DNA of 37,812 nt from a virus (lineage: Duplodnaviria; Heunggongvirae; Uroviricota; Caudoviricetes), in IMG/VR virus record IMGVR_UViG_2778261419_000004, positions 1-37,812 of that record; one strand, written 5' to 3'. Both the position numbers and the translations under genes were made by a program. Below, piece after piece: positions 1,882 through 18,743 of this stretch; position 1 is the stretch's first letter; every line of letters starts with the position of its first letter. The notes under the pieces were generated by a model, which was given only the letters and a program-made list of their open reading frames with translations, had not been told where the DNA came from and did not search any database.

Positions 1882-2761
1882 CCTCCAGTTTCGCTTTGCA
1901 TTCTATGTAAATGGCTTGTACGTTCTGCTGCAATTTCATTCCAGATGTCAGGCGATATGCTTCTGCAAAATATCGCTTCAAATCATCCATGTTTTCTGCC
2001 TGAGCCATTTCATCACAAAGAAGTTGTGCTTTATCCATTATTTCCTGCTGGCGTTTCCGTTCATCTTCGCGGATATCTTCCTCTGATTTGTGCGGCATAA
2101 CAGGTTCCTGATGCATACCTTCATCTTCGTTAAGCAGGTGAATGGCATTATCCAGTCGCTGGGCTTTAGGCCAGTATTTGCTGGCGCGTTTAACTATTGT
2201 TTTACGCGCCATCTCTTCCCAGAATGTTTTCCACGGTCCATTCTTTGCCTTGCTCGTTGCTTCCACAGCTTTAATTTCTGCCAGACTCATTTCTTCAGTC
2301 AGGTAGTCACCATCTGCTGTTTTAACCGTGCAATAACCACCAACAATAGAGCCTCGCTCACCAAATGCGTTGTATTTGTGGGTTGGTGCTGAATCAAGGC
2401 CATTTGATTCATAGGTGTCGTTTGAGTACACCAGTTTGCATTGCCCCCACTTAATTGATCCTGTCGACTGTGCAAGGTGAAGTAATCCCATATAGCTGAT
2501 ATCAAGGCACACCATGCCGTCGCGCGGAACCAGATAAGCCAGTTTGCTGGCCGGGTTCAAGGTGATTCCGATCGCCGCAACATTGATGATGGCGTTCTGT
2601 GCGCTGGTTGGATTTGCCAGTGCCGTTTTAGCCAGGTAATCGTTTTTCTGGAAATACTGAATTGCAAACTGGCTTTCCTTAGCCCATGTCACCGTCTGTT
2701 CAGTCAATGCTCCGCAGAATAACTGCTCCTGCTGTTTAACGAATTCAACGATATTGCTCAT
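1859..2761 (-). CDS. recT: RecT-family single-strand annealing recombinase
   Basis: 300-aa ORF; C-terminal segment KNGPWKTFWEEMARKTIVKRASKYWPK matches the conserved RecT region (Rac RecT NGPWVTHWEEMAKKTAIRRLFKYLP). Confidence 0.85.
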   Translation of the reverse strand: MSNIVEFVKQQEQLFCGALTEQTVTWAKESQFAIQYFQKNDYLAKTALANPTSAQNAIINVAAIGITLNPASKLAYLVPRDGMVCLDISYMGLLHLAQSTGSIKWGQCKLVYSNDTYESNGLDSAPTHKYNAFGERGSIVGGYCTVKTADGDYLTEEMSLAEIKAVEATSKAKNGPWKTFWEEMARKTIVKRASKYWPKAQRLDNAIHLLNEDEGMHQEPVMPHKSEEDIREDERKRQQEIMDKAQLLCDEMAQAENMDDLKRYFAEAYRLTSGMKLQQNVQAIYIECKAKLEVASEQTV

Positions 2762-3069
2762 GCTGCTTCTCCATAAATGTGTCTGCGTTTGAATATTGCG
2801 AAGGCATATTCAGCCTTAACTCTTTCGGTTATTGCATCCCAGAACCATTCAGCGGCTTTTTCCTGATAGTCACAGTCATCATCTTCCAGCCAGTCGATAG
2901 CGTCCTTAGTGTGTTCATCTGGCTTATATGAGCGAAGCATTTCGCTTATTGGGTCGCAACGTTTGCAGAGGCGATCAACTTCACTGTTGATTCGTTCGTA
3001 ATCTTCATCAGTAAAACTTGCGATTATTTGCGATATTTCACGCTTATCATTCAGAGTCAGAATCATCAT
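2758..3069 (-). CDS. Hypothetical early-left protein
   Basis: 103-aa ORF whose stop overlaps the recT start (coupled); acidic; no recognised domain. Confidence 0.55.
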   Translation of the reverse strand: MMILTLNDKREISQIIASFTDEDYERINSEVDRLCKRCDPISEMLRSYKPDEHTKDAIDWLEDDDCDYQEKAAEWFWDAITERVKAEYAFAIFKRRHIYGEAA

Positions 3070-3150
3070 CTTTCTCCTGTTCTTTGTGCTGATTGAGCAT
3101 TTTGTTCATCTGACGAATGAATTCTTCGTCTGACCAGTTATCTGTAAAAC

Positions 3151-3321
3151 TCATGGACGGCCTTGTTGTTTCAAAATATCCCAAAGCTTTTCGAGCAAAC
3201 TTTTCATTCTTGGTTGTTTAAAGTCTGCTCCGGTTAAAATATTTTTTCGTGAATGCTGTACCGATAAAATCGGGTTGAAAGGGCGAACCGATGCCGCCCC
3301 TGCAATAGCGAACTGTTGCAT
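3151..3321 (-). CDS. Small hypothetical protein (56 aa)
   Basis: Hand-translated MQQFAIAGAASVRPFNPILSVQHSRKNILTGADFKQPRMKSLLEKLWDILKQQGRP; fills an otherwise non-coding gap in the leftward operon. Not in the track. Confidence 0.3.
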   Translation of the reverse strand: MQQFAIAGAASVRPFNPILSVQHSRKNILTGADFKQPRMKSLLEKLWDILKQQGRP

Positions 3322-15050: not shown

Positions 15051-15510
15051 TCAACGTAAGGCGTTCCTCGATATGCTGGCGTGGTCAGAGGGAACAGATA
15101 ACGGACGTCAGAAAACCAGAAATCATGGTTATGACGTCATTGTAGGTGGTGAGCTATTCACTGATTACTCCGATCACCCTCGCAAACTTGTCACGCTAAA
15201 CCCCAAACTCAAATCAACAGCAGCCGGACGTTACCAGCTTCTTTCACGTTGGTGGGATGCATACCGTAAGCAGCTTGGCCTGAAAGACTTCTCTCCGAAA
15301 AGCCAGGACGCTGTGGCATTGCAACAGATTAAAGAGCGTGGCGCTTTGCCGATGATTGATCGCGGTGATATTCGTCAGGCAATCGACCGTTGCAGCAATA
15401 TCTGGGCTTCACTGCCGGGCGCTGGTTATGGTCAGTTCGAGCATAAGGCTGACAGCCTGATTGCAAAATTCAAAGAAGCTGGCGGAACGGTCAGAGAGAT
15501 TGAGGTATGA
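15034..15510 (+). CDS. R: Endolysin R (lytic transglycosylase)
   Basis: 158 aa [45 protein letters not shown]... near-identical to lambda R as recalled. Confidence 0.95.
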
Positions 15511-15974
15511 GCAGAGTAACCGCGATTATCTCCGCTCTGGTTATCTGCATCATCGTCTGCCTGTCATGGGCTGTTAATCATTACCGTGATAACGCCATCG
15601 CCTACAAAGAACAGCGTGATAAAAAAGTCAGTGAGCTGAAGCAGGCGACCGCCACCATTACTGACATGCAGCAGCGCCAGCGTTCTGCTGATGCACTCGA
15701 TGCTAAATACACGAAGGAGTTAGCTGATGCGAAAGCTGAAAATGATGCTCTTCGGCGCAAGCTTGATAATGGCGGCAGGGTGCTCGTCAAAGGAAAATGC
15801 CCTGTGCCATCCTCAGCCGAAACCTCCGGCGCCTCCGGCATGGGCAATGATGCCACCGTCGAACTCTCTCCAGTTGCTGGACGAAACGTTCTCAGTATCA
15901 GATCTGGAATCATCAGCGACCAAACATCACTGAGAACGCTTCAGGAATACATCAACACGCAGTGCCTGAAATGA
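15507..15974 (+). CDS. Rz: Rz i-spanin
   Basis: 155 aa; N-terminal [31 protein letters not shown] matches lambda Rz; C-terminal half diverges. Confidence 0.9.
15727..15933 (+). CDS. Rz1: Rz1 o-spanin lipoprotein (embedded in Rz, +1 frame)
   Basis: 68 aa [21 protein letters not shown]... with lipobox AAGC and a Pro-rich segment, nested in Rz as in lambda. Confidence 0.75.
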
Positions 15975-16024
15975 ACAATCATAGCCTCGTAATAGCGAGG
16001 CTTTTTACTAACCGAGGGTAAATA

Positions 16025-16213
16025 ATGTCATCTCCAATCATGAAGTATTTCGCTTATCAACACCTCCCTGCGCATCTGCAGGAAGTAAGTAAGCCAATCG
16101 GTGAACTTGCGACACTGATGGATGAATCACTGCCGGACAGTGCTGAAAAGTCAGCAGGTCTCCGCAAGCTGCTCGAAGCTAAAGATGCGCTGGTGCGAGC
16201 AAAGCTGGGGTAA
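16025..16213 (+). CDS. Hypothetical protein downstream of Rz
   Basis: 62-aa track ORF; GAGGGT upstream; function unknown. Confidence 0.45.
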   Translation: MSSPIMKYFAYQHLPAHLQEVSKPIGELATLMDESLPDSAEKSAGLRKLLEAKDALVRAKLG

Positions 16214-16361
16214 GTCATTACAAAGCCTATCTACGGGTGGGCTTGATAATGAAACCGGAATTTATTCTGGGTAACCAGTTACGGCAGTACCGCGAAACAA
16301 CCCAAGCCAGTAAGTGGGGAAATAACACTGGCAGCCACTGAAAGATGAACCTCCTGCCTTA

Positions 16362-16799
<438 letters not shown>

Positions 16800-16835
16800 G
16801 ACGAACCGATTGATGCATTGAAAATTTTGCGTGTG

Positions 16836-16856
16836 AATTGATGTGTCTCATCAATT
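16836..16856. promoter_or_regulatory. 21-bp perfect palindrome upstream of the protease gene (operator-like)
   Basis: AATTGATG-TGTCT-CATCAATT about 55 bp before the ATG at 16912; a second ATTGATG copy lies at 16809-16815. Confidence 0.4.
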
Positions 16857-16911
16857 ATTCTGGTGGATGAACTCATTATGATTTTTCACTCACCGGTATC
16901 GGAGCAAATCG

Positions 16912-17646
16912 ATGCATCAAACTTTAGCCAACGCAACCTTTCAAGTCATCGCAGGGCAGTCTCTCGGCAGTGGCTTTAGCTTCCTGAGAGATGATTTAGT
17001 TATAACAAATTGGCATGTAATAAAATCATTGGTTGACATAACAACTAGCAGCACTCGCGGTCCAGTAACTTTGCTCACTGAATCTCATCAGAGTTTACAA
17101 GCTCAGATTCAACGCGTTGACATCGCAAACGACATTGCGGTGATGCAACTTTCAGAAGCACTGCCAGCGGGAAGGGTTGTTTTGCAGCCTTCACCTAACT
17201 TCACCCCAACAAGGGGAAAGCGTTTGATTTTTGCAGGCTATCCGCATGGTTTTTCTGATTTGTTAACAAGTGAAGCCATAATTTCAGCCCCAATGGAGGA
17301 CGGCAAGTTTGCTATCGATGGAATGGTAAACGGTGGCAATTCCGGAGGGCCCATTATTGAATTGGAGTCAGGGGATGTTGTTGGTATCGTAACCGAAAGA
17401 AGATACCCAGGAAAAGTTGAGGCTGATGCTATTGCTGAAAGATCCAAAAGACTTTTGGTAGAAATTGGGAACATGGGAGTGAATGTAAGCTTCGGTGGTG
17501 TGGATTTCGCGAGGGTTAACTCACTTTATGCAGAGTCACTGGCTACAATAGTCAAAATTCTGGAGTCTAATGCAAATCCTGGCATAGGTATCGGTTTCCC
17601 TATAAAGCCTATTATTGATGCAATCGCTACGCTCAAAGCTGAATAA
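16912..17646 (+). CDS. Cytoplasmic trypsin-like (chymotrypsin-fold) serine protease
   Basis: 244 aa; catalytic triad context TNWHV (His), NDIAVMQL (Asp), GNSGGPI (Ser); no signal peptide; GGAG 6 nt upstream; AT-rich; own terminator. Confidence 0.8.
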   Translation: MHQTLANATFQVIAGQSLGSGFSFLRDDLVITNWHVIKSLVDITTSSTRGPVTLLTESHQSLQAQIQRVDIANDIAVMQLSEALPAGRVVLQPSPNFTPTRGKRLIFAGYPHGFSDLLTSEAIISAPMEDGKFAIDGMVNGGNSGGPIIELESGDVVGIVTERRYPGKVEADAIAERSKRLLVEIGNMGVNVSFGGVDFARVNSLYAESLATIVKILESNANPGIGIGFPIKPIIDAIATLKAE

Positions 17647-17678
17647 TATTATCTTTATCATAGTCATCATTTAAAAAG

Positions 17679-17701
17679 GTCTCGCATTGCGGGGCTTTTT
17701 A
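17679..17701 (+). terminator. Rho-independent terminator candidate after the protease gene
   Basis: GTCTCGC-ATT-GCGGGGC stem (two G-U pairs) followed by TTTTTA. Confidence 0.45.
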
Positions 17702-17807
17702 TTGCCATCACAAAAGCCATTCCCTACAGAGTGGCTTTGATAATGGCTTATACCCTGCACGGGATAACTTAACTGATATCCCTTTTAACGGATAAACGGA
17801 GCCAACA

Positions 17808-18050
17808 ATGGCAGAGATTATTCCCATGACTGAAGAACAGAAATTCCAGTTAGAGATTTACAAAATGGTCATGAACCAGAACGCACCCGCAGAGGAAGCA
17901 TTTCAGTTCATTGGTACTGACGAGCTGAAGCTTGAGCTATTCAAAATTCACTTCCAGTCAGGCGGCGCTAATTCAGATATCACGACCCGCACTATCGAAG
18001 CGGTGCGTAAATCGAAGGAAGCGTTAGACCTGTTCACTACCGGAGCATGA
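17808..18050 (+). CDS. Hypothetical protein upstream of terS (80 aa)
   Basis: Track ORF with GGAG upstream; size matches small ORFs recalled upstream of gene 3 in P22-like phages. Confidence 0.5.
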   Translation: MAEIIPMTEEQKFQLEIYKMVMNQNAPAEEAFQFIGTDELKLELFKIHFQSGGANSDITTRTIEAVRKSKEALDLFTTGA

Positions 18051-18051
18051 T

Positions 18052-18231
18052 GTGAGCCGCGTAATCAATTTGGGTAAGGAGAAGAAATTCCCAATTACTC
18101 AAGAGCTATACGAGCGGCTGGAAAGCGTCATTCATGATTACGATGGTGAAATCAGTTTATGCGAGGCGATTGGCACACTTGAATTGCTGAAGCAGTCACT
18201 GATTGAAAGCGCGAAAGAGTCCTTAACCTGA
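18052..18231 (+). CDS. Hypothetical small protein (59 aa, GTG start)
   Basis: Hand-translated SRVINLGKEKKFPITQELYERLESVIHDYDGEISLCEAIGTLELLKQSLIESAKESLT; starts 2 nt after the previous stop. Not in the track. Confidence 0.3.
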   Translation: MSRVINLGKEKKFPITQELYERLESVIHDYDGEISLCEAIGTLELLKQSLIESAKESLT

Positions 18232-18254
18232 AATAACAACTAAGTGAGATGAAT

Positions 18255-18743
18255 ATGGCAGCACCAAAGGGCAACCGATTTTGGGAGGCCCGCAGTAGTC
18301 ATGGGCGAAATCCTAAATTCGAATCGCCTGAGGCGCTGTGGGCTGCTTGTTGTGAATACTTCGAGTGGGTAGAAGCTAACCCGCTATGGGAGATGAAGGC
18401 GTTCTCGTATCAGGGTGAAGTGATACAAGAGCCTATCGCCAAGATGCGAGCGATGACCATTACCGGCCTCACTCTGTTCATTGATGTGACGCTTGAAACA
18501 TGGCGCACATATCGCCTGCGAGAAGATTTATCTGAAGTCGTTACGCGAGCAGAACAGGTCATCTACGACCAGAAATTCTCTGGCGCAGCCGCTGACCTTC
18601 TCAACGCTAACATCATCGCCCGTGATTTGGGCCTCAAAGAGCAGTCGCAAGTTGAAGACGTGACACCTGATAAGGGAGATCGCGATAAGCGGCGCTCTCG
18701 TATCAAGGAGCTATTCAACCGTGGAACTGGACGCGATTCTTGA
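18255..18743 (+). CDS. terS: Terminase small subunit (P22 gp3-like)
   Basis: 162 aa from the second [25 protein letters not shown]...; matches P22 gp3 in size and recalled N-terminus. Confidence 0.75.

Follow-up and report, generated by a model that had tools for sequence, protein, structure and literature searches.

A horizontally acquired cassette in the lysis-packaging slot of a P22-like prophage pairs a sensor-less HtrA-like protease with a small orphan protein and may serve inter-phage conflict

The stretch of DNA analysed here (the window; 37,812 nucleotides, IMG/VR record IMGVR_UViG_2778261419_000004) has the backbone of an HK620/Sf6/Kapi1-type P22-like phage, and between its lysis and packaging genes it carries a small cassette in which a gene for a 59-residue protein is followed by a gene for a 244-residue trypsin-like serine protease. 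The cassette is horizontally acquired cargo of the 'moron' type, lodged in the variable slot between the two gene groups. We give about an even chance to a function in inter-phage conflict, most plausibly one that would protect the lysogen through abortive infection or against superinfection. A defence role is our best reading by association: sequence comparisons place distant relatives of the protease in defence neighbourhoods and point to similarity with the protease domains of known defence systems. Trypsin-like proteases increasingly prove to be common in bacterial immunity, where they act as effector or licensing modules, and every characterised example that we know of has either a large sensor fused to it or a recognisable pro-effector as its partner. 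The family described here consists of sensor-less proteins of about 245 residues with an orphan 59-residue partner; it is portable, and occurs in restriction-modification (R-M) and TIR contexts across phyla.

Comparison with related phages clearly delimits the acquired segment. The matches of Kapi1 to window positions 16213-16420 and 17729-18259 lie just 9 bp apart, and because Kapi1 is thus nearly contiguous across the locus, 16421-17728 is an insertion relative to it. The insert is composite and foreign, consisting in order of an IS100 stub, the stump of an o-spanin gene, the 59-residue gene, a spacer, the protease gene and a terminator (Table 1). Its core, 16499-17700, is common to an unrelated prophage (L001) at 94% identity. 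Near-identical backbones without the cassette are found in Kapi1, HK620 and APC_JM3.2, and Sf6 is without it too. A preliminary description of the locus, made from the sequence alone, had called the protease gene AT-rich relative to its neighbours; this is borne out, mildly, by GC fractions of 0.442 for the protease gene, 0.356 for the 59-residue open reading frame (ORF) and 0.42 for the cassette; the lysis and packaging genes stand at 0.50. The locus therefore combines the marks by which morons are recognised, namely presence/absence polymorphism, deviant GC and a terminator of its own, most of the last being shared junction sequence. Lambdoid morons and other cargo (Rha or KilA-N in HK620 and Sf6, bor in lambda) have in common with it the variable slot, presence/absence, lower GC and a terminator, and Rha or KilA-N-type genes fill this very slot in Kapi1 and HK620. 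Unlike other lambdoid cargo, the protease pair is absent from the deposited phage genomes searched and has no promoter that passes our scan.

The left end of the insert holds traces of how it may have arrived. The o-spanin stump matches the C-terminus of a 77-residue ORF of L001 (BLASTP, 65% identity, E=2e-11), which itself matches phrog_1275, 'Rz-like spanin' (E=1.9e-27), and similarity to L001 starts at 16499. Since this foreign spanin stump adjoins the intact Rz/Rz1 of the phage, the cassette was brought over from a different type of lysis cassette. The stump is also the best-conserved DNA of the cassette (mean pairwise identity 0.94-0.97 across alleles) and largely explains the conservation of the 120 nt upstream of the 59-residue gene, which we had considered as a regulatory element. 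The adjoining stub, about 80 bp long and absent from Kapi1, matches thousands of IS100 copies at approximately 96% identity, and these matches stop at query positions 79-86; its placement relative to istB was checked in a further locus (L148). The last bases of the stub are a perfect TTGACA (16494-16499) directed towards the cassette, and right terminal repeats of the IS21 family bear an outward -35 box (PMC10122671). The IS100 end may have mediated the arrival of the cassette.

The protease ORF stands as first called, with an ATG start and a GGAG ribosome-binding site at 16901-16904, 7 nt 5' of it. It contains the TNWHV, NDIAVMQL and GNSGGP motifs from which a chymotrypsin-type triad had been proposed, and it matches Pfam Trypsin_2 over its full length with a score above the gathering threshold. 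Loss of the triad among homologues had been named beforehand as one of the findings that would refute the proposal of an accessory protease; H35, D74 and S144 are invariant in 46 homologues with identity down to 34%, as are PHG 111-113, R164, N220, N222 and G224. The His-Asp-Ser order, together with a double beta-barrel in the structural model, places the protein in the S1 family of the PA clan. An in-frame TGA lies 30 nt 5' of the ATG with no start codon between, so an N-terminal extension is not possible, and residues 9-14 are predicted to form the first core strand; for both reasons a signal peptide is excluded, as the preliminary description had held. The protease is under purifying selection, with a ratio of nonsynonymous to synonymous substitution rates (dN/dS) of 0.16 overall and 0.11 in the core, strong there and relaxed in residues 41-60 (0.46) and in an insertion, residues 165-223 (0.25). 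With its triad intact and conserved and its fold confidently modelled, the enzyme is predicted to be catalytically competent.

The AlphaFold2 (AF2) model (predicted local distance difference test score, pLDDT, 87 overall and 97 in the first core strand) is a chymotrypsin-type double barrel that ends with the C-terminal helix usual for such proteases. Structure prediction and Foldseek, which had been suggested as a check, confirm the trypsin fold and put HtrA-type proteases nearest: the top matches in the PDB are MucD, DegS-deltaPDZ, DegP and HtrA1 (E ~1e-11 to 1e-12), the nearest solved folds also include Deg5, and identities to the protease are 17-26%. HtrA, DegP, DegS and MucD (MEROPS S1C) have in common with it the double-barrel fold, the order of the triad, GNSGGP and a terminal GIGF strand. 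They differ in that the prophage protein lacks a PDZ domain (no Pfam match in its 244 residues) and a signal peptide, and is a cytoplasmic, phage-borne enzyme and not one of periplasmic quality control. Its scores against HtrA-type NCBIfam models are far under the cut-offs (TIGR02037, 52.7 versus 416 bits; DegS, 23.8 versus 423), and NCBIfam and PHROG searches returned no specific family for either cassette protein. We would therefore class it, from sequence and model, as a cytoplasmic, PDZ-less, HtrA-like S1C protease outside the HtrA/DegP/DegQ/DegS family proper.

The insertion is specific to this family. In the model it comprises two helices (residues 168-187 and 199-220, pLDDT ~64-74) and sits between the strands that carry the catalytic serine and the final GIGF strand. 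Alignment to DegP suggests that it occupies the position of the HtrA loop L2, which is short in HtrA proteases, whereas here it is a helical insertion of 59 residues. It has the lowest nucleotide conservation within the cassette and is among its fastest-evolving segments; it is kept end to end throughout the family.

A profile search of 1.84 billion protein representatives recovered 58 clusters at E<=1e-30. Nearly all members are 235-255 residues long and match the profile from end to end; a free-standing architecture without a sensor is thus characteristic of the family. The protease gene is present in 29 of 5,426 complete E. coli genomes (0.5%), 50,697 phage records gave no match to the cassette by DNA or by tblastn, and enterobacterial plasmids held no copy of the protease, while one homologue was found on an archaeal plasmid. 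In prophages and IMG/VR contigs the gene always lies after the lysis genes and before the terminase, in P22-like, lambda-like (nohD), PBSX-TerL/DUF1073 and Pantoea contexts. The cassette is foreign and dispensable, can move between phage types and is subject to purifying selection, which makes it accessory cargo and excludes a morphogenetic role. The earlier proposal that the protease gene is accessory and outside morphogenesis and lysis is upheld by its patchy presence among close relatives, by its occurrence with three unrelated head and packaging types and by its rarity in E. coli.

The preliminary description had presented the protease as a self-contained, free-standing unit beginning at 16800. 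The true unit starts about 400 nt further to the left, and in this clade the protease pairs with a conserved upstream gene that had been missed. We surveyed 53 full-length protease loci, 36 of them enterobacterial prophage copies; in about 29 of those 36 the 59-residue gene precedes the protease gene by a constant 116-117 nt, and every E. coli match to the protease also has the 59-residue gene. The dN/dS of this gene, ~0.17, shows that it is real. The 61 homologues of the 59-residue protein (62-100% identity) are confined to Enterobacterales, and none of them is named. Neither Pfam, PHROG, NCBIfam, PADLOC nor the sequences of the PDB contained a match to the protein, and a Pfam search with 29 members of its family found nothing even at E<=10. 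AF2 predicts one short helix and a long beta-hairpin (pLDDT 70) with only 3 residues beyond the last strand, and a Foldseek search of the PDB with this model gave no match below E=2. The pairing is not obligate: the gene is absent from six loci (L101, L119, L115, L014, L120 and L121) and from all protease homologues below 50% identity, and one locus (L103) has a diverged 76-residue version. In another (L007) the partner is identical and the protease only 54% identical, indicating reassortment, and divergence of the two proteins is weakly correlated (Spearman rho 0.24). Because the partner is dispensable and reassorts, we take the protease as the effector and the 59-residue protein as its modulator; the latter more probably serves as an inhibitor, adaptor or sensor than as the only effector of cell death.

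The argument for defence comes largely from the neighbourhoods of distant homologues. In a deltaproteobacterial metagenome-assembled genome (MAG; L020, 649-1398), a homologue of 34% identity lies between hsdM and hsdS, overlapping each of them, in a complete type I R-M operon whose hsdR gene is downstream; it is translationally coupled to its neighbours, and abortive-infection add-ons typically hold such a position. In a Pirellulales MAG (L015, 4959-6735) a ThsB-like TIR_2 protein is encoded 59 nt upstream of a homologue, and a second ThsB-like TIR neighbour is found near a family member in L013 (3970-6729), the TIR proteins of these two loci being directly upstream or two genes away; a TIR-protease pairing may exist. 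A further homologue (L016) stands beside a Gp49/HigB and HTH pair (HigBA) and an HNH gene. Others are near integrase or ParA genes (L018, L019) or among phage baseplate genes (L124).

Similarity to defence proteins points the same way. A PADLOC search, also suggested in the preliminary description, supplied effector-domain similarity for the protease and no whole known system: the best match in the defence library is the reverse transcriptase (RT)-protease of retron type XI (E=2e-13, and down to 5e-18 for relatives), followed by PDC-M35A, Avs1b and LmuA. In retron type XI the protease is the presumed effector domain (PMC7736814). The match covers profile positions 346-487 of 506 and protease residues 15-164, leaving the helical insertion outside; membership of retron type XI is rejected, as there is no reverse transcriptase domain and no room for one in 244 residues. 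The candidate system PDC-M35 was likewise set aside, since the PDC-M35A match is weak (E=2.4e-7, 28.8 bits) and no adjacent ORF matches any PDC-M35 model.

The closest parallel in layout is offered by protease-effector modules, in which an effector gene lies directly upstream of a sensor-fused trypsin-like protease (PMC12642450, PMC12799240). The cassette has this gene order in common with the Pepco/Trypco, EACC1, MBL nuclease and alpha/beta-hydrolase modules of Avs, Hachiman, Lamassu and DRT systems; like them it resides in mobile or defence loci, and its protease is weakly similar to the protease domains of Avs1b and LmuA. A small gene directly upstream of a trypsin-like protease is the layout that recurs in proteolytically gated defence modules. 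Module proteases are fused to sensors (STAND, HamA, LmuA, RT; FGE), whereas the cassette protease is without any fusion, and the cassette partner is dispensable across the family and unlike any module effector. Pepco has about 117 residues, and its conserved Ile is followed by a C-terminal tail that is charged and proline-rich (PMC12642450). Identity of the 59-residue protein, half that size, with Pepco/Trypco or EACC1 is rejected on sequence, fold, length and tail.

If the cassette does serve inter-phage conflict, the protease itself would be the effector. It could be held latent by its own two-helix, L2-equivalent insertion, by the 59-residue protein, or by both, until a signal from an invading phage led it to cleave host or phage proteins. 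A defence role would require expression in the lysogen. A bolder form of this proposal, which we regard as possible but unlikely, is a minimal sensor-less immune system: the S1C protease would sense infection through its helical insertion or through the 59-residue partner, as a new class of protease regulator or substrate, would kill or arrest the cell by proteolysis, and would have been reused in R-M operons and beside TIR proteins across phyla. Should the cassette be defensive, sensing and regulation would be built into the protease domain, and the prophage arsenal would gain a compact two-gene addition. With a core of ~1.2 kb, it is small enough for direct testing.

Several observations weigh against a defensive function. 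About 4 of 12 distant loci have defence neighbourhoods, so that these are anecdotal; the neighbours at other loci are uninformative or housekeeping. A sister family of free-standing proteases (~260 residues, E ~1e-28 to the profile) includes a member in a dnaK-dnaJ operon (L149, 2853-4807), where it overlaps the dnaJ end, and this coupling suggests proteostasis roles among the relatives. PADLOC gave domain-level matches only, with no whole system and nothing for the partner or the neighbours, and our literature search found no paper on the protease family or on PDC-M35. The regulatory role proposed for the insertion is read from where it lies in the model, in a part of medium confidence. No promoter passed a sigma-70 scan of the + strand of 15900-18300, and expression may be late and lytic instead of lysogenic: in L001 the 59-residue gene follows the o-spanin stop by 43 nt in the orientation of the late operon, which makes late-operon co-transcription plausible.

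These last points lend weight to the most serious competing account, in which a protease expressed late from the Q-dependent operon benefits the phage by degrading host immune proteins, proteins of satellites or competitor phages, or other host proteins. In every phage context the gene has the strand and position of a late gene, its travel with a spanin 3' end implies long linkage to lysis cassettes, and Q-modified polymerase reads through flanking terminators in lambdoid phages; the scan result and the short gap in L001 fit as well. We nevertheless consider this account unlikely. Distant homologues occur in chromosomal defence contexts without a phage (type I R-M, TIR, HigBA); the strong terminator and the conserved 112-nt spacer with its -10-like CATTAT suggest some autonomous transcription, to which the IS100 end adds an outward -35 box in this lineage; and late timing is poor for neutralising most defences. 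Were it correct, the cassette would provide a rare phage-encoded protease aimed at host or competitor proteins. The position beside lysis and packaging genes is also the sole support for a structural role in virion assembly or lysis, and that idea is effectively refuted. Kapi1, HK620, Sf6 and APC_JM3.2 are viable without the gene, its hosts use three unrelated head and packaging systems, one of them (L003) has a separate S49 prohead-type peptidase, no deposited phage genome matches it, and to our knowledge P22-like heads need no prohead protease.

Two further alternatives concern the roles of the two proteins. In a protease-gated pro-toxin of the Pepco or EACC1 kind, the 59-residue protein would be a latent membrane-active or otherwise toxic effector freed by clipping. 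Gene order, fixed spacing and purifying selection on the partner fit, and its amphipathic-looking helix and long beta-hairpin in the AF2 model could oligomerise; yet the partner has no likeness in sequence or structure to Trypco/Pepco or EACC1, with 59 residues against 117 and no tail, the partner is missing from many members of the family, close prophage homologues in this slot among them, the genes reassort, and no sensor is fused to the protease. We hold this to be distinctly improbable. An addiction pair resembling a toxin-antitoxin system, with the protease as toxin and the 59-residue protein as a labile inhibitor that stabilises the prophage, defence being secondary, we find more doubtful still. 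Such a pair would account for a small gene followed by a larger enzyme on a mobile element with a dyad in the locus, and protease toxins such as ietS are known. The locus departs, however, from a type II toxin-antitoxin pair in the 112-nt gap, in a dyad that lies between the genes and not upstream of the first, in an acidic partner without a DNA-binding domain and in the weak co-divergence, and partner-less proteases persist in the same slot, which would be unexpected of an unopposed toxin. Inter-phage conflict with the protease as effector remains the reading that we prefer.

The spacer between the two genes contains the palindrome to which the preliminary description had drawn attention. It is present as a perfect 21-bp element, AATTGATG-TGTCT-CATCAATT, at 16836-16856, with a second ATTGATG half-site at 16809-16815, but is not uniformly conserved. 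In an alignment of 21 distinct spacer variants the left half-site AATTGATG, CATTAT (16874-16879) and GGAG are nearly invariant, whereas the right arm has decayed in L100, L102 and L108 (CACTGATT) and reads differently in L097 and L111, so a perfect palindrome is not universal. When the 112-nt spacer is shuffled, 1% of the resulting sequences contain an inverted repeat with perfect 8-bp arms; 14 such repeats occur in the window, where this particular dyad is unique. As a hairpin the dyad is worth just -7.1 kcal/mol, the fold of the whole spacer is not significant (z -1.3), and an Rfam search of the cassette matched no family, with one sub-threshold miRNA match only. The canonical FNR box has TTGAT/ATCAA half-sites at N4 spacing; the half-sites fit, but the N7 spacing, the unconserved right arm and the uniqueness of the dyad led us to reject this identity. 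The 59-residue protein is unlikely to be a regulator that binds the palindrome, being acidic and without a DNA-binding domain.

CATTAT falls within a conserved mini-ORF of four codons (16867-16881; ATG AAC TCA TTA TGA, or ATGA...CATTATGA across alleles), which is in frame with the protease ORF and whose stop lies 30 nt before the protease start. From its sequence the mini-ORF is a candidate for a leader peptide or a -10 box. If CATTAT is a -10 element, the dyad would be centred near -40, typical of class II activators; as a promoter candidate it is weak, lying ~33 nt before the protease ATG with a poor -35. Two other weak candidates lie further upstream: TTGAAG (16568-16573) separated by 17 nt from CATAAA, and the TTGACA of the IS100 end, which at the same distance from TCGCAT could form a hybrid promoter.

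The hairpin and T-run that had been noted 3' of the protease are confirmed, and none of 200 shuffles folds as well. Matches to the segment 17681-17797 occur in mEp460, HK544, Sf6, Ayreon (which has it annotated as 'terminator') and others, and most of the terminator is, by this comparison, junction sequence common to many lambdoid phages.

Table 1. Features of the cassette (positions in the window).
Feature	Position	Strand	Details
IS100kyp (IS21 family) right-end stub	16421-16499	+	Last istB codons (stop 16433-16435) and terminal repeat
Foreign Rz-like o-spanin 3' stump	16499-16588	+	29 codons and stop, cut off by the IS100 stub
Small partner gene	16620-16799	+	59 residues, acidic; orphan family of Enterobacterales
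Spacer	16800-16911	+	112 nt, conserved; ATTGATG, palindrome, CATTAT, GGAG
Protease gene	16912-17646	+	244 residues, ATG start; Pfam Trypsin_2 match E=1.7e-17
Triad codons of the protease	His35 17014-17016, Asp74 17131-17133, Ser144 17341-17343	+	
Two-helix insertion, residues 165-223	17404-17580	+	Predicted (AF2 model); family-specific, short hairpin joins the helices
Terminator-like hairpin, A-tract and T-run	17674-17705	+	dG -13.9 kcal/mol, z -4.95

The wider slot was also inspected. The genes that had been named as its flanks are correct, with Rz at 15507-15974 (Rz1 embedded) and a gp3-type terS at 18249-18743 (PF16677, 3.6e-33), but placing the protease simply between Rz/Rz1 and terS is loose, as the interval also contains four more small ORFs (16025-16213, 16620-16799, 17808-18050 and 18052-18231). 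For the 62-residue ORF at 16025-16213 the match to phrog_1761 (E=3e-33) is limited to positions 78-138 of 148; the ORF looks, from this partial match, like the C-terminal remnant of a longer slot gene of relatives. A bidirectional terminator-like hairpin lies right after Rz (15983-16002), so that the accessory region is bracketed by two terminators within the late operon.

Some variants of the locus deserve mention. The only recurrent fusion in the protease family is a C-terminal SEC-C zinc-binding motif (PF02810) in marine members (L012, 6001-6825, Agarivorans; P0074, P0086 and P0087). In two partner-less Pantoea-type loci an unrelated 74-residue protein (phrog_6978, function unknown) is encoded directly upstream of the protease (L014, 5679-5903; L115, 5689-5913). 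The lambda-like prophage L003 encodes an 'SDH family Clp fold serine proteinase' between Q and a holin gene (2236-3231, minus strand) and thus holds a second accessory protease beside the cassette. In E. coli PSS-11 (NZ_AP027694.1, ~1400216-1402336; H47, H104) the matches to the cassette's two halves are ~1.3 kb further apart than they should be, and the protease gene there appears to be interrupted, possibly by an insertion sequence.

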